Notes: generated from the letters alone by a model not told the origin. DNA of 16,207 nt from an uncultured archaeon (GCA_964447495.1 CAYUTF010000062.1:3679-19885), one strand, 5' to 3'. Counted from the first letter of the stretch, positions 2,604 to 15,602 are shown. Translations and numbers: made by a program.

Positions 2604-3740
2604 TTATCTCAAATTAATATTTGGAAATTCAGTATTATCAACTGCAGCTTGAACGTAGGGAGAAATTGGTCCCCTTCCCAATGCCATAATCCGTATCTTA
2701 GATCCTAAGGACGGATTCAAAGATGTGCCAAATTTTAATGACGCCTCTTTAGGAATTTCATGAGATATGGTTGATATTATTTTGTCAATTTTTGATAATG
2801 ACAATTTGTGATCTCCCGAAACAGATACAATACATTTATCAATTTTGTGTGGGTCCGGATCTAAGAGAGGATTATTTAATGCGAGTCTTGCCTTATTAAT
2901 CAAATCTGACTCGTCACCTAATGATTCAGTTATTCCAATTAGTCCACTGGGATAATTTCCACTTTTTTCAAGCACTTTTTTTACGTCAGCATAGTCAATG
3001 TTAATCAAGCCACAATTATTTATTAAATTTAGAATTTCACGTATGCATCTAATTAAGACTTCATCCATAATTTTAAATCCAGTTAAAATTGGCAATGTAT
3101 TGTTAAATTTTAATAAATTGTCATTAGGAATAGTTATTAGAGTATCTGTATTTCTTACAAGTGCTTTTAACCCTTTTTGGGCTCTTAAGTTTCTTTCATT
3201 CCCTTCAGAAGAAAACGGAATTGAACAAAATGTTACTACAGTTGCATTATTCTTTTTTGCCTCTCTTGCTATAATCGGAGCAGCTCCTGTTCCTGTTCCT
3301 CCACCTAATCCATAAGTTAAGAAAACAACATCAGCATTCAATGCTTCAGCTAATCTTTCTATATCTTCTTCCGCAGCTGAAGCCCCAATTTGAGGATCAT
3401 TACCTGAACCTAAACCATTACAGGTTTCCTTCCCGATTAGTAGTTTTTTATTAGCATTGGAATAATAAAGGTCATGGGCATCAGTATTAATGTTTAAAGT
3501 TTCAACATAATCAGACCCTAAATCCTGCATTCTAGAAACGGTGTTATTCCCTGCACCGCCGATTCCAACAACAACGGATTTTATTTTCAGAACTTTTAAC
3601 AAATCAGATAAATATTTATCGCTATCTAAATTAGCATTTTGATTGCTTACTTTATTTTGATGCGCAATTTCGTTAAATCTGGACCTTACTGATAATCTAG
3701 AATTTACTACATCTTTTAAATCAAATTCTTCTTTAGCCAT
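2604..3740 (-). CDS. ftsZ: Cell division GTPase FtsZ (archaeal FtsZ1-like)
   Basis: VVGIGGAGNN, INTDA, GLGSGNDP, the GGGTGTG tubulin/FtsZ signature, PFSSEG and the T7 loop GLINIDYADV are all present. Confidence 0.95.
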   Translation of the reverse strand: MAKEEFDLKDVVNSRLSVRSRFNEIAHQNKVSNQNANLDSDKYLSDLLKVLKIKSVVVGIGGAGNNTVSRMQDLGSDYVETLNINTDAHDLYYSNANKKLLIGKETCNGLGSGNDPQIGASAAEEDIERLAEALNADVVFLTYGLGGGTGTGAAPIIAREAKKNNATVVTFCSIPFSSEGNERNLRAQKGLKALVRNTDTLITIPNDNLLKFNNTLPILTGFKIMDEVLIRCIREILNLINNCGLINIDYADVKKVLEKSGNYPSGLIGITESLGDESDLINKARLALNNPLLDPDPHKIDKCIVSVSGDHKLSLSKIDKIISTISHEIPKEASLKFGTSLNPSLGSKIRIMALGRGPISPYVQAAVDNTEFPNINLR

Positions 3741-4239: not shown

Positions 4240-5556
4240 TTAAGCATCTAAATCAAGTTTTATCTCACCATAAGTTCCTCCACCACCGGGAGTATAACTG
4301 ATCTCATTATTTCTCATAGCTTTAACTATACTTCCTATATTCTCATCATAATTATTAATTCTTTCGATAGGTAAATCGAGTAAAATTTCATATTCGTTTC
4401 CCAATTGAGAAATTATCTTATCATATGCATTCACCACAGTTTTACTAGTACTATTTTTCACATTCTTAATAGAGCGGATAATATCTATTAATGGGATGGC
4501 ATTAATATAAGGTGGTCTATGATCAGGATGCTTAGTATTTTTGTATGACGCAATGGTTTCGATTCTTTCACTTACACCTAACTTAATTTTGAAATTTTTA
4601 TTGAATTCTTCTTTACAAGCTGGACATATCACTTTTCCTTTGGCAACAGTACCGATGAAATCCTTTCTCGTATTTTCTGCATCATTGGAGTAGTATTTAA
4701 TGAAGTTAGGGGTAATTTGATATTGATTAAAAATAGAGGTTAAAGATTTATTACTCTTTTTAAAAATTATACGTCTTCTACATTTATTACAGAACATATT
4801 ATAATATTTTCCTAATTTTGGATGTAAACCTACATTAAGAATTATTTTACGCGAATCTTTTCTCCGTAAAGCAGATTCAATTTCTTCAAATGAAGGATTA
4901 TCTATATCAAACTTGTTAAATTCTCTTCCAAGGGAGCGTGGTGATTGAGAATGAGCATCGCTATTACTAAGAAAAGTTACATCTTGTAGGCATTCTAAAC
5001 GATCTGCTAAATCTGTATTTGCAGACAAACCTAATTCTATGAATAATACTTTTTTCACTGAATCTTGATAACATTCTTTTAGTGTAGCATATTGGTTCTG
5101 ACGAAATATAGCCTTGAAAGGAGTGAAAGCATGTGCTGGTCCGATTATTCCGCCTAAATCAGAAATAATATCCACTAATTCAGCTGGAGATAAATTTATT
5201 CTAGGTCTACCACCCCATTCATTATACAAGTTTTTGGAATGGGTTCTAAGTTTTTCTTGAGTTTCATATACTGTCTTGAAATCAGGAAGGAAAACTATAT
5301 GATGAATATTTTCTGTGTCCTCGATTTCAGTTTGTAAAAGGAAATAGAGATCTTTATACTTGAAAGCACCATCTTCTGTTCTTTGGAGGTTATTTTGCAT
5401 GTATTTTAACCATTCTGGTTGTAAAATATCTCCTGTACCTAATAAATGGAGCCCTTTCTTCTTGCAGGTAGCTATCATAGTATCTAAATTGAGAGATTTT
5501 GATACTGCAATCGAATGAGGACTATGAATATGAAGATCTGTGTTGTATAATTGCAT
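4240..5556 (-). CDS. endoQ: Endonuclease Q family protein (PHP domain plus Zn finger; TIGR00375-like)
   Basis: Motif order DLHIHS, GTGD, PAHAFTP, ELGLSA, SNSDAHS, LGRE, GLHPKLGKY, CxxC...CxxC, GVSERI, RPPY, GGGGTYG matches EndoQ. Confidence 0.88.
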   Translation of the reverse strand: MQLYNTDLHIHSPHSIAVSKSLNLDTMIATCKKKGLHLLGTGDILQPEWLKYMQNNLQRTEDGAFKYKDLYFLLQTEIEDTENIHHIVFLPDFKTVYETQEKLRTHSKNLYNEWGGRPRINLSPAELVDIISDLGGIIGPAHAFTPFKAIFRQNQYATLKECYQDSVKKVLFIELGLSANTDLADRLECLQDVTFLSNSDAHSQSPRSLGREFNKFDIDNPSFEEIESALRRKDSRKIILNVGLHPKLGKYYNMFCNKCRRRIIFKKSNKSLTSIFNQYQITPNFIKYYSNDAENTRKDFIGTVAKGKVICPACKEEFNKNFKIKLGVSERIETIASYKNTKHPDHRPPYINAIPLIDIIRSIKNVKNSTSKTVVNAYDKIISQLGNEYEILLDLPIERINNYDENIGSIVKAMRNNEISYTPGGGGTYGEIKLDLDA

Positions 5557-5631
5557 TATTATAAGAAAAACACAATTTAATATAAAATTTAATTAATATT
5601 TTTATTATTTAAGGACTTTAGAGTATAGAGA

Positions 5632-6690
5632 TTATTCATTAACTTTTATTTTACGCCATTTGTTTGCTTTTTCGTGATCATTTAATTCTTCATAACAATG
5701 AATGAGATTTTCAATGATATCATATTCATCAGGAATAAGACTGATTATTTTTTCATAATATTTGAGTGCAGAAGCAAAATCTTTTTCACAGTAATAATAA
5801 ATGATTGCAATTTTTCTCAAAATATTGACTGATTGAGGATTCAAATCAAGAGCTTTTTTATAATATTCTAATGCATTGTAATAATCTTGAAGTGCATCAT
5901 AACAGAAACCAAGATTATCATACAGGATAGGATCATCAGATTCAAGTTTCAATGCTTCTTCATAACATTCAATCGCTTTTCTATAATTTTTTTTAAAAGT
6001 ATAACATAATCCCAGATTGTTCCAAGCTTCAAGTATGTAAGGATCTAATTGTAGTGCTTTTGTAAAGGAGTCTATTGCTAAATCATAGTTAGCTGTTTCA
6101 TAAGCAACGTCTCCTAAATCATACCATAATTCAGCATTATGGGGAGCTAATTCAAGCGCTTTTTTAAAGAAGTGCATAGCATTATCATAATCCTTTTTGT
6201 CATAATATACCGCAGCGAGATTATTATATAGTATAGGGTCATCTGGGTTAATTCGAATTGCTTTTTCATAGCTTTTAATTGCATTATTAAATTCCTCGAG
6301 GTCTTTATAAATAATAGCAATATTATTTAAAACATCTGTATAACTTGGATCAAATTCCAATGACTTGTTATAATATTCTAAAGCTTTCTCAAAATCTTCT
6401 TTCTCTTCATAAACAAATCCAATATTATAATATATTACAGCGTCTTCCGGATCTAATTTAATGGCATTAAAATAAGAATCAATTGCATTATCTAATTCAC
6501 CTTTCATTGAATATGAAAGCCCTAAATTATTCCATACTTCTGAATAATAAGGATTAATATCAAGTGCTTTTTTAAAACAACTTATTGCATGATCAAAATC
6601 TTCTTCGTCGTAATAAGCGTCTCCTAAGTTTATCCAGCTGTCTAAGTCGTTAGGATCTTGTTTTATTGCTTCTTTAAATCGTTCAATCAT
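5632..6690 (-). CDS. Tetratricopeptide-repeat protein (about 9-10 tandem TPRs, no other domain)
   Basis: 34-aa periodic W/Y-x-N-L-G ... A...Y.KAL.LDP repeats span the whole length. Confidence 0.93.
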   Translation of the reverse strand: MIERFKEAIKQDPNDLDSWINLGDAYYDEEDFDHAISCFKKALDINPYYSEVWNNLGLSYSMKGELDNAIDSYFNAIKLDPEDAVIYYNIGFVYEEKEDFEKALEYYNKSLEFDPSYTDVLNNIAIIYKDLEEFNNAIKSYEKAIRINPDDPILYNNLAAVYYDKKDYDNAMHFFKKALELAPHNAELWYDLGDVAYETANYDLAIDSFTKALQLDPYILEAWNNLGLCYTFKKNYRKAIECYEEALKLESDDPILYDNLGFCYDALQDYYNALEYYKKALDLNPQSVNILRKIAIIYYYCEKDFASALKYYEKIISLIPDEYDIIENLIHCYEELNDHEKANKWRKIKVNE

Positions 6691-6768
6691 ATTAATTTAC
6701 ACATATTTCTTAAGATTGTAAATGATTAATATCTATAATCTTTTTGTAAAATTAGTAAATGATTATTT

Positions 6769-7824
6769 TTAGGTTAATACTATCATTTTATCGCATCTTT
6801 GATCACTTAACAATATTCTATAATATTCTTGTTCTTCTTTATATTGTACTTGTTCTAGTTTGCCTATGACAGTAACTATTTCATTTGTTACTGCTTGTTC
6901 GCAGAATCTTCCTCGGTAAGAATTAATTTCATGTATTCTCTTAAGTGGGAGTTTTTCTCTACTTATTATCGACTTCAGGATTTTTATTGCTTTTATTTTA
7001 TAACTACATGGCGTAAAAATTGAATTTGTAGAATCAGTTATCTCGGCCTTTATACTTATTCTTCCTAAATTCTTAAAGTTATAATCATAATAGTTGCCTT
7101 TCCAATCTTCAGGACTTTTAATATATCGAATAAAGAAGTCTCTATCCTCATACTTACCTTGATGTAGCTTTCTGCTCTCAGTTTTAAAAAAGGTTTCGTA
7201 TGGTATACCTGAGCCCCCAACTCGCCAATTATAGTGAGTTTCATAATCCTTCTTGCTATACATTCGACATTTATTTGGAGAATTATAGATTTTTTTTAAG
7301 TTTTTTTGAAAATTTAAACTAATCTGAGTTCCATATATTATTAAATCAATATCAGAATTCTGTTTGTTTAATCCGATCATCTGTGACCCAGTTATACCGA
7401 TTAAATTTTTTGGGATTTTTCCTTCATTAATAAATAATTTACATAAACTTTTTGAGATCTTTTCATTTTTAGAAAGTACTTTTTTATTATATAATGAGAT
7501 AAAATAAGTCCTTGGGGAATAAATCTTTTCTATCTCTTCATTTTTCACACATTGTAATTCCATATCCAATTCTGGGGAAAAAAAAAGATGATTTGGAAAG
7601 TGTGTTTTTAAAAACGAGTATCTTTTGTCGAGATCATATATTTTTTTATATTTTAGCCCTGCTTTTAATCGATCCCCATTTTCGTGGGGATAAAATCGTA
7701 TAAAACATATTTTCCTATCATTTGGATGATGCAATCCCTTAACATCAAAAAAAAGATGGGTCTTTTTAGTTTCTATATAATCACCCTCAATCCCTATAGG
7801 AGTTATCATAGAAATTCTAACCAA
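6769..7824 (-). CDS. Pol-beta superfamily nucleotidyltransferase (archaeal COG1665-like)
   Basis: GITGS...SDIDLIIYG catalytic motif, an N-terminal FDVKGLHHP..R...FIRFYP block and a C-terminal OB-like beta region. Start is uncertain (TTG 7824 or ATG 7809). Confidence 0.8.
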   Translation of the reverse strand: MVRISMITPIGIEGDYIETKKTHLFFDVKGLHHPNDRKICFIRFYPHENGDRLKAGLKYKKIYDLDKRYSFLKTHFPNHLFFSPELDMELQCVKNEEIEKIYSPRTYFISLYNKKVLSKNEKISKSLCKLFINEGKIPKNLIGITGSQMIGLNKQNSDIDLIIYGTQISLNFQKNLKKIYNSPNKCRMYSKKDYETHYNWRVGGSGIPYETFFKTESRKLHQGKYEDRDFFIRYIKSPEDWKGNYYDYNFKNLGRISIKAEITDSTNSIFTPCSYKIKAIKILKSIISREKLPLKRIHEINSYRGRFCEQAVTNEIVTVIGKLEQVQYKEEQEYYRILLSDQRCDKMIVLT

Positions 7825-7826
7825 AG

Positions 7827-8930
7827 TTAATATTTTGAAGGTGTTTTTGATTTTATTTTATATTTTGGTATTTCTTTTAGTTTTCTTATTTGATTCTCAA
7901 ATTCTTTCTTTTCTCTTAGAAATCGTTCTTTATCTCTTTCTAATTTATCTCTTTCTTTTTTAATTGTATTTTTTTCACTTTCAATGGAAAATTTTTCCTT
8001 TTCAATATTATTATAATGATTTTGTAAGTTTTTTAGCTTACTTTCTAAATCTTGAACATTTCGCTCTAAAGAATGATAAGTGCTTTCTGCTTTCGGAACT
8101 TTTTTATTTAATTCTTTCAGTTTTGCTTCTTCCTGTTTTCGGGATCTTTCTAAATTTCTTACCTCTTCCTCAACATTTTCTCTAAATTTTTCTAAATCTT
8201 TCTTTTTCTTATCAATATCACGAGCTTTTAGATTAAGGTTCTTTTTCTTATATTTGATTTTATCTTTATAATCTTTTAAATGTCTCTTCTCATCTTCAAT
8301 GCGATTCCTTTCATCTACGAGTTCTCTTTTATTATCATTAATTTCTTTATTTAGGTTATCCTTCTCACTTGTTAGTTGTTTTATTTCGTTTCTTAAGCCC
8401 ATTAACTTGTCTTCATGTTTTTCAATAGTTTTTTCTAAAGCATTTTCTCTTCGTTCCATACCCGGTATTTTCGTTTTAATCTCTTTAATACGATCTTCTG
8501 ATCTGCTTTTTTCTTTCTCTAGATTAATTTTTTCTTTCTCTAAATCATCTTTAATACTATTTAACTTATCTTGATATCGTTTTAAATCATTACTTTTTTG
8601 ATCTAATTCCTTCTCTTTTGTTTGGAGGGCACTTTTATGCTGTTTTATGTCATTTCTCATTGTTTCTATATCGTTTTTTAAATGATCGCGTTCCGTTAAG
8701 AGATTTCTAACTTCTAATTCTTTTTCTTTTCTCTTCTTCTCAAGATCATTTATATCATCACCATAACCTTCAACCTTTTTTATAACTTTTTCCCAATCGT
8801 TTTTCTCCTTAATTAATTTAGCTCTTTCATCTCTTATTTCTTTGAGTAACTTTTCATTTGAGATAGCATCTATTTCATCCTGGGGTGTTTTTTCTCGAAT
8901 TTGATATTTTTGAATGGGTTTATCGTTCAT
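7827..8930 (-). CDS. Long all-coiled-coil protein of unknown function
   Basis: About 330 aa of K/E-rich heptad pattern with short non-helical ends. No ATPase motif or TM segment. Confidence 0.85.
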   Translation of the reverse strand: MNDKPIQKYQIREKTPQDEIDAISNEKLLKEIRDERAKLIKEKNDWEKVIKKVEGYGDDINDLEKKRKEKELEVRNLLTERDHLKNDIETMRNDIKQHKSALQTKEKELDQKSNDLKRYQDKLNSIKDDLEKEKINLEKEKSRSEDRIKEIKTKIPGMERRENALEKTIEKHEDKLMGLRNEIKQLTSEKDNLNKEINDNKRELVDERNRIEDEKRHLKDYKDKIKYKKKNLNLKARDIDKKKKDLEKFRENVEEEVRNLERSRKQEEAKLKELNKKVPKAESTYHSLERNVQDLESKLKNLQNHYNNIEKEKFSIESEKNTIKKERDKLERDKERFLREKKEFENQIRKLKEIPKYKIKSKTPSKY

Positions 8931-9105: not shown

Positions 9106-9516
9106 ATGGATTTTGAAGATGAGGATGAAAAATTTGATGAGGATGAAGAATTCGATGAAGATTTGGATGAAGAGTTAGATGAGCAATTAAAAAAGCCAAT
9201 TCTCGATGATCTTGCAACTAAAACTCCAAGTAGCACAATTATTTCTGAAGCAAAGAAGATCTCAGTATATCTAATGTCAACAATAGGTCCAGGGGAAAAG
9301 AAGCAAAAATTATTAATTTATACTGGGTATAAAATTAGTGATATCAAGGAAACAGTAGCTAATATCTTTGGTTTGGACCCCGCTGACTTTCATTTATCTA
9401 CAGGGGGCGTTACTATGGATGAGGGATCAACACTGAATGATTACAACTTAAATGATGGAGATGATATTCTTTTGATTCCAGCTAGCACTGCAGGTAAAAT
9501 TAATCGAAATATTTAA
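9106..9516 (+). CDS. Ubiquitin-like modifier, paralogue 1 (long acidic N-tail; C-terminus ...IPASTAG-KINRNI)
   Basis: Beta-grasp pattern ISDIKE...FGLDP..FHL..GG..MDEG.TL.DYNL.DGD.I.L aligns with the ubiquitin core. 54/81 residues are identical to the 11356 protein by manual count. Confidence 0.9.
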   Translation: MDFEDEDEKFDEDEEFDEDLDEELDEQLKKPILDDLATKTPSSTIISEAKKISVYLMSTIGPGEKKQKLLIYTGYKISDIKETVANIFGLDPADFHLSTGGVTMDEGSTLNDYNLNDGDDILLIPASTAGKINRNI

Positions 9517-10417: not shown

Positions 10418-11089
10418 TTATTCCTCATTGATTAATTTTCTAACCTCAGAATATTTATCTTCATTTAAACAAAATAAAACAGTTCTATTTTGTCTTTCAA
10501 TTTTTATTAGTTTTAAATTTTGTAAAATCTTAAGATACTTTTTTGTAGTATTATAATTCTTTTTCACTCCTTTTGCGATTTCCGCGATCTTTAATTCTTT
10601 CTTTTGCCCCTGCATGAATTTAATTATTTCTTTTACCACATTTTGTTTTGAATAGAAATGCAATTCATCGAGTTTAGGATCTAAATCAAATTTGAAAAAT
10701 ACCCGTTGATTATCAATTTTTTTTGATCTTACAAATTGAAATTTTTCTAAACAAGATAGGTGCCATAAAACTTGATTACTTCCAATGTTTAGTGCTTTCA
10801 TAATTTCATTAATGTTTGATGGAGTATGTTTAATTAAATTAAAAATTTCATTTCTTACGGGATGTTCTATAATATTATTTTTCATTAATTTAGTTCCAGG
10901 AATAAGGACTCTTTTTTTAATAAGTTTCTTTATGATACATTCGATCCTATTTTTATTTATGTTCGGATTTGCCTTTACTCTGTTATTAATGAAGACCACG
11001 ATATCTTCAATTGAAAAGAATGGTTTCTTTTTTAAATATTCTTTAATCAATTCAAAAACAACATATTCGGTATTATTCGGGGAATTCAT
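10418..11089 (-). CDS. Tandem winged helix-turn-helix transcriptional regulator (ArsR/COG3398-like)
   Basis: Two wHTH units, HPVRNEIFNLIK...INEIMKALNIGSNQVLWHLSCLEKFQFV and IAEIAKGVKKNYNTTKKYLKILQNLKLI, plus a possible third N-terminal wHTH. Confidence 0.85.
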   Translation of the reverse strand: MNSPNNTEYVVFELIKEYLKKKPFFSIEDIVVFINNRVKANPNINKNRIECIIKKLIKKRVLIPGTKLMKNNIIEHPVRNEIFNLIKHTPSNINEIMKALNIGSNQVLWHLSCLEKFQFVRSKKIDNQRVFFKFDLDPKLDELHFYSKQNVVKEIIKFMQGQKKELKIAEIAKGVKKNYNTTKKYLKILQNLKLIKIERQNRTVLFCLNEDKYSEVRKLINEE

Positions 11090-11355: not shown

Positions 11356-11691
11356 ATGAGTTTTGAAGAGGATTTTGATGAACAACTGGAACCATTAAAG
11401 TCTAAAACGCCTGCAAGTAAGACTCCTTCAACAGGAAAGAAAGTAACTCTATATTTTATGTCAACTATCGGGCCTGGTGAAAAGAAAGAAAAGTTAACCG
11501 TAAATGACGCTAATCAAGTAAGTGATATTAAACAAACCTTAGGAAACTTATATGGTCTCGATCCTAATGAATTTCATTTATCATCCGGTGGAGTTACAAT
11601 GGATGAAAATAATCAATTAAAAGATTATAGCGTGAATGACGGAGATGACATTCTTTTGATTCCTGCGAGCACTGCGGGTAGACTTATATAA
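11356..11691 (+). CDS. Ubiquitin-like modifier, paralogue 2, first gene of the conjugation operon (C-terminus ...IPASTAG-RLI)
   Basis: Beta-grasp core VSDIKQ...YGLDP.EFHL..GG..MDE...LKDY.V.DGD, directly upstream of E1, E2, JAMM and RING genes. SD-like GGAAGTGA precedes the ATG. Confidence 0.93.
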   Translation: MSFEEDFDEQLEPLKSKTPASKTPSTGKKVTLYFMSTIGPGEKKEKLTVNDANQVSDIKQTLGNLYGLDPNEFHLSSGGVTMDENNQLKDYSVNDGDDILLIPASTAGRLI

Positions 11692-13070: not shown

Positions 13071-13607
13071 TTGAAAAAAATGAGTATAAGAAGTAGTCGT
13101 ATTTCTCGAGATTTTGCGGGTTTAAAAAAGATGCTCAAGAATGGAACAATGGTTCAATTAAAACCATTTGATCCTAATAAAAAGAGTATTGATCATTTAG
13201 CAATTACTATAAAAGGTCCAAAAGGGACCGCATATGCAGGAGGTCTCTTTAAATTAGAATTGAAATTCCCTGTTCAGTATCCCAAACAACCACCGTTCGT
13301 AAGACTACATACACCAATCTGGCATCCTAATTTTTGGCCAAAACCAAGTGAATATAAAGGACAAAGAAATATTTGTTTAGCTTTAGTTGATCCTTCTTTA
13401 GTCGGTAAAAAAGGAGGTTGGAGCCCTTCTAAAACAGCAGTCACTGTTGTACAAGCAATTATTGCAATGTTAAATACTCGTGGAAAATATGTAAATCCTA
13501 CAGATGTTTTCAATAAAAAAGCTGCAATAGAAATGATGAAGGATCAAAAATTTTTTGAGAAAAAAGTCAAAAATTTAGTAAAGAAGTATGCGAAAGATAA
13601 GTGGTGA
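13071..13607 (+). CDS. E2 ubiquitin-conjugating enzyme (UBC fold; likely start ATG 13080)
   Basis: IKGPKGTAYAGGLFKLELKFPVQYPKQPP.V...TPIWHPN...ICL...WSP, with the catalytic Cys at 13374-13376. Confidence 0.96.
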   Translation: MKKMSIRSSRISRDFAGLKKMLKNGTMVQLKPFDPNKKSIDHLAITIKGPKGTAYAGGLFKLELKFPVQYPKQPPFVRLHTPIWHPNFWPKPSEYKGQRNICLALVDPSLVGKKGGWSPSKTAVTVVQAIIAMLNTRGKYVNPTDVFNKKAAIEMMKDQKFFEKKVKNLVKKYAKDKW

Positions 13608-14441: not shown

Positions 14442-15602
14442 ATGGTAAAAAAGAAAAAATCAATCATCATCTTTTTTATTTTTTTTTTAGTTGGCTCTAT
14501 CCATGGATTAATTTCAATGTCATTAAATATTTTTTTAACCTGGATATTTATTGGACTCTGGTTAATTTTTACAATAAAGATTTACGAAAATATAAAGCGT
14601 CATCGGGAATTTAATTCCCCCCATAATACTGCTTTTTTTGTCACAATTCCTTTATTTATAGGATTTATTTATTCGATTTGGGGTTCTTATACGGGTTTAT
14701 TAGGAGAAAATCTTATAGAGAGCTCTAATTTCTATTTTAGCTTATGGAGTTTAATTTTTGGTTTACCTTTTGTCTTATATGGAGCTTATTCATTATACCG
14801 TTGTTTTAAAAAGTATAATGTAATCTATTTTGGCACAAAATCAGTAAAAGCAAAAACGGTAGGATACTTTTTATCTTTCTCAATTATTTTGAGCATAAGT
14901 CTTTATTGGATAATTTTTTATACTATTATTGAAGTTTATAATTCTCTACTAATTCCATTCTATTTCTCTTTAGATCTTAATCTTTTATTATTATTTATAT
15001 CAACCATAGTAATACTCATTATATTTGGATTTTTAAATGCTCAAAGGCAATTACCCCCTTTAACTCGAGATTACATAGCACAACGTACTAGAAGAATAAA
15101 TTCACTAACAACACCTACATATCAAAGCCAACAAGTACGAACAACTAATAGATCTACTACTTCTCCATCAACAAGAACGATGAGGCGTACAACTAGAACT
15201 GCGACTCAATCAACTAGAACTACACCAACATCTCATAGTCATAAAACTAGAACCACAAAAACAACTCAATCTAAAAGGACAAAGACTAGTCTAAAGATTC
15301 AGAATTTAAATAATTATAGGCCAAAAGCATCGTATTTGACTGTAGAGGATTTTAAATGTATTTTCTGTTTTAATTTACCAAAATATCCTGAGGATAAAGG
15401 GAGAGGTATCATTTTGTGCCCTAATTGCAAATATCCCGCACATGCTGATGAGTTTAAAGATTGGTCAAAGACATCAAACTTATGTTCCCGTTGTAGCGCG
15501 CCAATTCCTTCTAATTTTAGAAGAAATCCTAGAATTATTAGTGTAAAAGATTACTCAATTATCTATAAGCAGTTTTTAAAAAAGAATAATACTAGATCAT
15601 AG
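14442..15602 (+). CDS. Polytopic membrane protein (~6 TM) with Thr/Arg/Ser-rich linker and C-terminal variant RING finger; putative E3 ligase
   Basis: About six hydrophobic segments in aa 8-198, then C-x2-C-x16-C-x2-C-x4-H-x2-E-x3-W-x6-C-x2-C at 15357-15494. Last gene of the Ubl-E1-E2-JAMM run. Confidence 0.8.
   Translation: MVKKKKSIIIFFIFFLVGSIHGLISMSLNIFLTWIFIGLWLIFTIKIYENIKRHREFNSPHNTAFFVTIPLFIGFIYSIWGSYTGLLGENLIESSNFYFSLWSLIFGLPFVLYGAYSLYRCFKKYNVIYFGTKSVKAKTVGYFLSFSIILSISLYWIIFYTIIEVYNSLLIPFYFSLDLNLLLLFISTIVILIIFGFLNAQRQLPPLTRDYIAQRTRRINSLTTPTYQSQQVRTTNRSTTSPSTRTMRRTTRTATQSTRTTPTSHSHKTRTTKTTQSKRTKTSLKIQNLNNYRPKASYLTVEDFKCIFCFNLPKYPEDKGRGIILCPNCKYPAHADEFKDWSKTSNLCSRCSAPIPSNFRRNPRIISVKDYSIIYKQFLKKNNTRS

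Follow-up and report, generated by a model that had tools for sequence, protein, structure and literature searches.

A candidate membrane-anchored RING-type E3 encoded at the end of a ubiquitin-like modifier operon of Asgard archaea

The DNA analyzed is a 16,207-nucleotide stretch from an uncultured archaeon (GCA_964447495.1, CAYUTF010000062.1:3679-19885), referred to as the window throughout, with a G+C content of ∼29%. It carries, on one strand, genes for a ubiquitin-like protein (Ubl), an E1-like activating enzyme, an E2-like conjugating enzyme and a JAMM/MPN metalloprotease. These are followed by the gene of interest, which encodes a polytopic membrane protein with a C-terminal zinc finger and is called TM-RING here (TM, transmembrane). 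Adjacent genes of this row are spaced by −20 to +86 nt and TM-RING begins 20 nt past the JAMM gene, so that it is co-located with Ubl, E1, E2 and JAMM genes as in an archaeal ubiquitin operon. Features and their coordinates are collected in Table 1.

Table 1. Features of TM-RING, of the window around it and of related loci (aa, amino acids; pLDDT, predicted local distance difference test).
Feature	Coordinates	Strand	Basis
TM-RING gene, 386 aa, ATG start, stop codon 15600-15602	14442-15602	+	Open reading frame list and translation
Membrane domain, aa 1-200, six predicted helices	14442-15041	+	AlphaFold2 models, hydropathy, positive-inside statistics, conservation
Juxtamembrane basic helix (aa 209-223), then disordered Thr/Arg/Ser/Gln-rich linker (aa ∼224-290)	15042-15326	+	Composition, pLDDT
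Zinc finger of predicted RING/U-box fold with flanking helices, aa 296-386	15327-15599	+	
Putative ligand core C306-x2-C309-x16-C326-x2-C329-x4-H334-x2-E337-x10-C348-x2-C351	15357-15494	+	Conservation, motif search
Ubl, 111 aa, ends ...STAG-RLI	11356-11691	+	Pfam ubiquitin E 8.3e-07, 29.1 bits against a cut-off of 25.4
E1-like activating enzyme, 411 aa	11758-12993	+	Pfam ThiF E 3.6e-58; NCBIfam Ube1 subfamily E 1e-31, below cut-off
E2-like conjugating enzyme, 175 aa from ATG 13080, HPN motif, Cys99	13080-13607	+	Pfam UQ_con E 9.8e-26
JAMM/MPN metalloprotease, 277 aa	13588-14421	+	Pfam JAB E 1.3e-15
Second Ubl, extension KINRNI	9106-9516	+	
Protein with N-terminal hydrophobic region and C-terminal ubiquitin fold, 261 aa	9548-10333	-	Pfam ubiquitin E 6.1e-07
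Two-winged-helix protein	10418-11089	-	HTH_5/ArsR E 1.9e-07; HVO_A0114 E 4.5e-07
FtsZ homologue	2604-3740	-	Tubulin E 2.3e-37
Eight-repeat TPR protein	5632-6690	-	
Open reading frame	4240-5556	-	No Pfam family above cut-off
Open reading frame	6769-7824	-	No Pfam family above cut-off
Open reading frame	7827-8930	-	No Pfam family above cut-off
Membrane-domain-only paralogue	L101:4636-5223	+	E 1.6e-8 to profile positions 7-184
Membrane-domain-only paralogue	G047:C587:22029-22586	-	E 4.4e-12 to profile positions 7-184

The open reading frame at 14442-15602 is a real and conserved gene. With a limit of E ≤ 1e-3, a word-indexed search returned 360 homologues. Identity to TM-RING was 58-90% and length 361-404 aa among the best 120; the start MVKKK is common to relatives. 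All source names given for the homologues were 'hypothetical protein', with Asgard labels that include Loki-, Hel-, Thor-, Hermod-, Hod- and Kariarchaeal names. An exhaustive phmmer search over 1.84 billion representatives gave 115 clusters at E ≤ 1e-3 and 54 at E ≤ 1e-30. Matches at E ≤ 1e-5 were present in 267 of 400 same-phylum genomes and in 56 of the 90 high-quality ones among them. Full-length matches were obtained in many Asgard families, the distant ones including members labelled Helarchaeota and Kariarchaeaceae. Other families gave weak matches only (E ∼1e-7 to 1e-11), which were confined to the finger in the five genomes examined in detail. Conservation and charge statistics were derived from an alignment of 68 members, 17-74% identical to the query. 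The same alignment was used for a full-length AlphaFold2 model, which had a mean pLDDT of 86.9, with the membrane and C-terminal domains at ∼96-97. The protein falls into three parts: the membrane domain, the disordered linker and the C-terminal finger. Pfam and NCBIfam searches found no family above cut-off, the sole match on the finger being Zn_ribbon_15 (E 0.035).

Gene order was counted in 80 related loci, taken from 160 confirmed matches. The JAMM gene lay directly upstream of TM-RING on the same strand in 79/80. E2, E1 and Ubl genes were found upstream in 75, 71 and 65 loci respectively, and the full order Ubl-E1-E2-JAMM-TM-RING was kept in 65/80. Misses were loci cut by contig ends, except for one (L080) without a Ubl match. 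In five distant families, with TM-RING 24-42% identical, the genes present kept their order; it was complete in three, and the contigs of the other two end earlier. These counts support TM-RING as the conserved last gene of an Asgard Ubl-E1-E2-JAMM operon. A first-pass annotation of the window had taken the protein for the E3 of this operon.

Six helices were assigned to the membrane domain by AlphaFold2 (aa 2-25, 28-56, 64-80, 101-123, 137-161 and 179-198). Modelled alone, aa 1-225 gave a pLDDT of 92.4 and a predicted template modelling score (pTM) of 0.84; the membrane domain stood at ∼96 in the full-length model. A Kyte-Doolittle scan with a 19-residue window and a threshold of 1.6 flagged five segments (∼5-32, 22-48, 63-82, 139-166 and 168-202). 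The fourth helix is less hydrophobic and lies below the scan threshold; it is predicted by the AlphaFold2 models. Mean Lys + Arg counts over the 68 members were 1.6 at the N-terminus, 2.8 in loop 2, 5.6 in loop 4 and 6.6 after the sixth helix. Loops 1, 3 and 5 had means of 0.2, 0.6 and 0.4 and are net acidic. By the positive-inside rule these values are consistent with a predicted N-in/C-in topology, in which both termini are cytoplasmic, as are loops 2 and 4. As this pattern is consistent along the protein, the linker and finger are predicted to be cytoplasmic too. The basic motifs on which the first-pass annotation had based its topology are present (KKKK at aa 3-6, KRHRE at aa 52-56 and RCFKK...KSVKAK at aa 120-138), and its six-TM, positive-inside reading with linker and RING in the cytoplasm agrees with the modelled helices and the family-wide charge counts.

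The best-kept features of the membrane domain are the loop-2 motif R-x2-N-S-P-x-N (REFNSPHN here), the loop-4 hairpin pattern Y-x3-Y-x3-K and P109 in helix 4, the only nearly invariant membrane residue. The hairpin is formed by two beta-strands of aa 127-136, and the topology places it and loop 2 on the cytoplasmic side. This face would be the likeliest site of contact with substrates or partners.

A resemblance of the membrane domain to Hrd1, Doa10 or Derlin, for which a fold comparison had been proposed, did not emerge from a Foldseek search with the aa 1-225 model, where no match rose above noise (best E 1.9). The ESM Atlas gave no usable look-alike of the same residues. No Derlin, Doa10 or MARCH chain was among the best 50 structure matches listed, an absence that is not proof of a different fold. 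The models thus describe a confidently predicted fold without a supported relative. The Pfam family PFF1_TM was matched by 8/68 members at E ≤ 0.05, with a best score of 27.9 bits against a cut-off of 32.3. It was rejected as compositional because the four matches examined (19-28 bits) span TM5-6 and the low-complexity linker.

Paralogues that consist of the membrane domain only (195-210 aa, without linker or RING) were observed directly downstream of TM-RING in two of five distant genomes sampled (Table 1). The membrane domain can hence exist without the RING, and the arrangement hints at hetero-oligomers. In the genome of the window itself a single-sequence search returned the TM-RING gene alone and no TM-only paralogue. 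TM-RING could on this ground be a transporter, channel or sensor with the membrane domain as its functional core, the RING serving only to regulate it, for example through auto-ubiquitylation or signal-dependent recruitment of the ubiquitin machinery. The very high confidence of the isolated model, the conserved polar motifs on loops 2 and 4 and the downstream TM-only paralogues would suit such a protein. The distribution of conservation runs the other way, the RING being the best conserved part of TM-RING and the membrane domain the least. Moreover, no transporter or channel fold was matched above noise, and no Pfam membrane family reached its cut-off, PFF1_TM included. A membrane domain that acts as the functional core is considered distinctly unlikely.

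The stretch between the membrane domain and the finger (aa 200-295, 96 residues) contains 26 Thr, 21 Lys + Arg and a single Asp or Glu. The pLDDT was below 50 at aa 235-240 and 244-282 of the full-length model, and the linker varies among relatives in both length and sequence. Pfam matches to Endomucin, US29 and Selenoprotein_S fall on the linker and were rejected as compositional.

The finger has the family motif C-x2-C-x(11-17)-C-P-x-C-x4-H-x2-E-x3-W-x6-C-x2-C, which was present in 99 of 116 representative matches; the 17 misses were mostly fragments without the C-terminus. C306, C309, C326, C329, H334, W341, C348 and C351 are invariant in the 68 diverse members. E337, at the sixth ligand position, is kept in at least 90% of them and is replaced by Ala in a few and by His in two distant short relatives. 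The ligand set is thus C4-H-E-C2, with seven Cys/His where a standard cross-brace has eight, in a spacing that itself fits a cross-brace and is also PHD-like. Two zinc ions are presumably bound, the first through C306, C309, H334 and E337; this first site is putative since its position six is Glu, or Ala in some relatives. Residues of the kind that contact an E2 are in place: Ile and Phe follow the first Cys (C-I-F-C), W341 stands four residues after the sixth ligand, and I307, F308 and W341 are kept in the family.

The C-terminal domain was modelled with the three-dimensional fold of a RING/U-box. Foldseek rows for the finger were dominated by RING and U-box chains, with 3lrq at a probability of 0.97-1.00, LubX, CHIP, Ring1b and Rad18, and the HRD1 RING at rank 27; none of the finger matches reached E ≤ 1e-3. 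Most of the RINGs matched by fold are dimeric and have flanking helices. By title, the best 50 structure matches were RING or U-box chains, except for an IFT-A zinc finger (8fh3_C). When the family profile was run against solved structures the best sequence match was the RING-H2 of RNF24 (2ep4_A, E 0.0021). The alignment pairs C306, C309, C329, H334, W341, C348 and C351 with RNF24 and puts E337 on a ligand Cys. The profile also matched the C-terminal finger of WDR19/IFT144 (E 0.0096). Among the 68 members, Pfam at E ≤ 0.05 gave Prok-RING_1 in 22, zf-RING_16 in 15 and zf-RING_2 in 14. The best family member scored 26.2 bits against the zf-RING_2 cut-off of 27.3, which was exceeded only by P0229 and P0231, short relatives at a greater distance (28.6 and 30.3 bits). 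The fold searches support a RING/U-box fold, as opposed to other zinc-finger types, in line with the RING named in the first-pass annotation.

A complex of the operon E2 (36-row alignment), two zinc ions and aa 286-386 of TM-RING (68-row alignment) was modelled in three runs. The E2-RING interface score (ipSAE) was 0.71, 0.58 and 0.71 (median 0.71), compared with 0.00 for the best of three controls. Contacts agreed between runs by at least 100% and the partner pLDDT was at least 87. The modelled interface comprises residues 3, 6-7, 10 (helix 1), 68-69, 108-112 and 115-118 of the E2, and residues 307-311, 337, 341, 344-345, 347, 349-350 and 352 of the RING, which we take to be the canonical RING-E2 surface. 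Complex modelling with the E2 had been suggested as a check, and the operon E2 was placed at the expected interface with clean controls. According to the available text of PMC5654768, ubiquitylation was impaired when the equivalent Ile and Trp were mutated in the Caldiarchaeum RING. Binding of the operon E2 by the finger is probable on the basis of these models.

Some of the finger evidence would also fit a PHD-, FYVE- or zinc-ribbon-like reader of peptide, lipid or nucleic acid that does not bind an E2 and has another role in the operon, for example in Ubl binding. The C4-H-x2-(E)-C2 spacing resembles the C4HC3 pattern of PHD fingers, the best Pfam match is the zinc ribbon, and the WDR19/IFT144 finger is matched by the profile. 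The structure matches, RING or U-box chains apart from 8fh3_C, argue against a reader, as do the invariant E2-contact residues and the passing of the complex model at the canonical surface. We hold a reader to be very unlikely.

TM-RING is read here as a membrane-anchored RING-type E3, or E3-like E2 adaptor, that works with the operon Ubl, E1, E2 and JAMM protein, and this reading is considered fairly probable. It has in silico support from the topology, the RING fold, the conservation of E2-contact residues, the operon position and the passing E2-RING model. Several points weigh against it. TM-RING stays below the cut-off of every Pfam and NCBIfam RING model, no Pfam RING model matches it at E ≤ 0.1, and the protein is missed when the genome is scanned with zf-RING_2 at E ≤ 0.01. 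The finger has just seven Cys/His ligands, the sixth ligand being Glu and, in a few relatives (P0132 and L084), Ala. Many active RINGs carry an Arg or Lys 'linchpin' directly after the last ligand; in this family the residue that follows C351 is never basic but one of Ser, Asn, Asp, Gly, Glu, Thr and Ala. RING-E2 pairs are common among solved structures, so that the pass of the complex model may show likeness and not binding of this particular copy. The ipSAE mark is reached by 116/157 solved complexes and by 2/215 mismatched pairs, counts that hold only roughly here because the job used its own alignments and zinc. Finally, the genome has three or more further RING-H2 matches above cut-off and another UQ_con gene, so that the operon E2 need not depend on TM-RING.

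The missing linchpin and the Glu at the sixth ligand make a non-catalytic anchor the main rival. TM-RING would then hold the E2 or E2~Ubl at the membrane, much as the endoplasmic reticulum protein Cue1 tethers Ubc7, and other RING proteins of the genome would be the true ligases. Further RING-H2 genes are available for this (four matches, three over cut-off), and an E2 interface is predicted all the same. Against a mere anchor stands the invariance of the E2-contact Ile/Phe and Trp, a feature shared with the active RINGs described in the available portions of PMC5654768. R350, one residue before C351, is kept in at least 90% of the 68 members and touches the E2 in the model, which makes it a possible displaced linchpin. 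A canonical linchpin is also lacking in many active RING/U-box ligases. An anchor without catalytic function is rated as unlikely.

For TM-RING acting as an E3, the following course of action is proposed. The six-helix domain would sit in the cytoplasmic membrane with both ends inside, and the flexible basic linker of ∼70 residues would let the RING sweep the membrane-proximal cytoplasm. The RING would dock the operon E2 by the canonical surface, to which I307/F308, the central-helix residue W341 and the C348 loop belong, and would contact helix 1, loop 4 and loop 7 of the E2. E2~Ubl would in this way be brought to substrates at the membrane, and the RING may stimulate discharge of the Ubl. 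The membrane domain would fix the place of action and probably the choice of target. Substrates may be membrane or membrane-associated proteins, selected through the cytoplasmic face of the membrane domain, where loop 2 ('NSPxN') and the loop-4 hairpin are conserved. The JAMM protease would mature the Ubl, which carries the RLI extension in the window, and would probably reverse conjugation too. A function in quality control or in a signal-triggered response, as suggested in the first-pass annotation, remains a conjecture. A bolder version is possible and remains doubtful: a dedicated and widely conserved Asgard polytopic E3, with a membrane fold without a solved relative and a RING with a Glu ligand, that marks membrane proteins with the operon Ubl, so that these are sorted in an ESCRT-dependent way or else extracted and degraded by the proteasome.

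What is new is an archaeal operon RING E3 candidate fused to an uncharacterised six-helix membrane domain and provided with a non-canonical ligand set. Reconstitution has already been achieved for archaeal ubiquitin operons whose RINGs are small and soluble, according to the available parts of PMC5654768 and bioRxiv 10.1101/2023.07.25.550441. In the available text of PMC9192718, a catalogue of Asgard ubiquitin-ESCRT components, E3s were found only via InterPro IPR018611, and the ubiquitin and ESCRT genes of Lokiarchaeota are given as lying in two regions. No membrane-integral archaeal RING ligase is described in the accessible full-text literature searched, including PMC10936438, PMC4571572, PMC12962969, PMC13328587 and PMC10456885, and supplementary tables such as asCOG lists may name the TM-RING family. 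That a conserved integral-membrane E3 candidate stands at the operon end in many Asgard lineages suggests that much of the action takes place at the membrane. TM-RING is of interest because it makes the targets and the place of Asgard ubiquitylation directly testable, and it gives a concrete means of testing whether ubiquitin is linked to ESCRT sorting in Asgard archaea, as has been proposed. If the bolder version given above is true, TM-RING would be a prokaryotic counterpart, and possibly a functional forerunner, of eukaryotic membrane-protein ubiquitylation in endoplasmic-reticulum-associated degradation or endosomal sorting.

Among the other products of the operon, most E2 homologues listed are 175 aa long, with H82, P83, N84 and C99 invariant. 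The translation of the JAMM gene contains HSHPSYGCFMSKED, which we take to fit the JAMM motif H-x-H-x7-S-x2-D, and the protein is likely a Ubl-processing and deconjugating enzyme. Its annotated start codon (ATG, 13588) lies inside the E2 gene, the two genes sharing 20 nt (13588-13607). The N-terminal ∼90 residues of this protein have an acidic composition and little conservation, and tblastn matches in many loci start only at about residue 95. The operon Ubl and the second Ubl of the window both end in ...PASTAG and not in Gly-Gly, followed by the extensions RLI and KINRNI respectively. Exact stops at ...STAG were found in 43/68 orthologue matches of the operon Ubl. As many orthologues stop there, the mature C-terminus is probably Ala-Gly, with processing needed in some species only.

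Upstream of the operon a divergent pair, a winged helix-turn-helix regulator and a membrane-anchored Ubl-domain protein, was present in 55/80 loci, and a second conjugatable-type Ubl adjoins this pair in most. In the window the pair is represented by two proteins. The two-winged-helix protein, divergent from the operon with conserved synteny, is a candidate regulator of it. The 261-aa protein ends in ...IPSRNKI, without Ala-Gly, and looks like a membrane-anchored non-conjugatable Ubl beside the operon. A convergent folE2-type GTP cyclohydrolase gene followed TM-RING in 64/80 loci. Further upstream, the window contains the FtsZ homologue and, in the region 4240-8930 on the minus strand, the TPR protein and three open reading frames without a Pfam assignment (Table 1). 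One complete Asgard-type operon, with a TM-RING 64% identical, is filed under a metagenome-assembled genome titled 'Candidatus Nanopelagicaceae bacterium' (L024, DATKTW010000176.1). The bacterial title is probably a binning or labelling error and the operon not a bacterial copy.

Elsewhere in the same genome, contigs C35, C40, C174, C27, C93, C11 and C67 hold four zf-RING_2 matches, three of them above cut-off, and four Prok-RING_1 matches, and a second UQ_con gene lies at C67:11253-11675. The organism has, by domain matches, several E3 candidates and two E2-fold proteins. In view of the other RING proteins, TM-RING is the operon-encoded E3 candidate and not necessarily the only E3.

The first-pass annotation had called TM-RING 'Hrd1/MARCH-like'. 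The general layout of a polytopic domain with a cytosolic RING stands; kinship of the membrane part is not supported, and the helix count and the ligand set differ as well. The annotation had itself allowed for a convergent resemblance. In Hrd1 and gp78, too, several N-terminal membrane helices precede a cytosolic RING, and these ligases likewise work with an E2 of the UBC fold. Hrd1 has eight membrane helices and a RING-H2, compared with the six helices of TM-RING. The membrane fold of TM-RING has no supported similarity to that of Hrd1/gp78 and its ligands are C4-H-E-C2, not C3H2C3. Nor does the finger follow directly on the last helix as in Hrd1/gp78, ∼100 residues lying between TM6 and the first Cys. 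MARCH and Doa10 are likewise membrane-embedded E3s, with a finger whose first half is of C4-H type. MARCH and TM-RING look alike in the H-x2-ligand spacing and in having a Trp at position +4 from the sixth ligand. The RING-CH (C4HC3) finger of MARCH/Doa10 is N-terminal to the membrane helices, whereas that of TM-RING is C-terminal. RINGv was absent among the 25 families listed of the 48 matched by the 68 members, and no MARCH or Doa10 chain was among the finger structure matches listed. TM-RING is thus probably Hrd1-like in layout only. Common descent with the Hrd1/gp78 or MARCH/Doa10 ligases of eukaryotes, membrane domain included, is given hardly any credence.

The likeness to RNF24, a single-pass membrane protein, covers the finger only, and RNF24 has the full C3H2C3 set. 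Fingers of IFT-A/protocoatomer type (WDR19/IFT144 and IFT121) gave weak scores. They end large soluble WD40-TPR proteins, and we know of no report of IFT-A C-terminal fingers as ligases.

Closest in genomic setting are the Caldiarchaeum subterraneum 'srfp' (PMC5654768) and the Helarchaeial RING E3 (bioRxiv 10.1101/2023.07.25.550441), which in the available text of both sources are clustered, as here, with ubiquitin, E1, E2 and JAMM/Rpn11. These small archaeal RING systems also share, as there described, a conserved Ile and Trp on the E2-binding face and a pro-Ubl with a C-terminal extension. In the accessible parts of the same sources the RINGs were purified as soluble proteins. The srfp is given as RING-H2-like with a functional Arg69 linchpin (PMC5654768), and the Helarchaeial E3 as purified full-length and acting on UEV-Vps23 (bioRxiv 10.1101/2023.07.25.550441). 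Compared by these descriptions, TM-RING differs in its predicted six-helix membrane domain, its linker of ∼70 residues, its C4-H-E-C2 ligand set and a linchpin position that is not basic.

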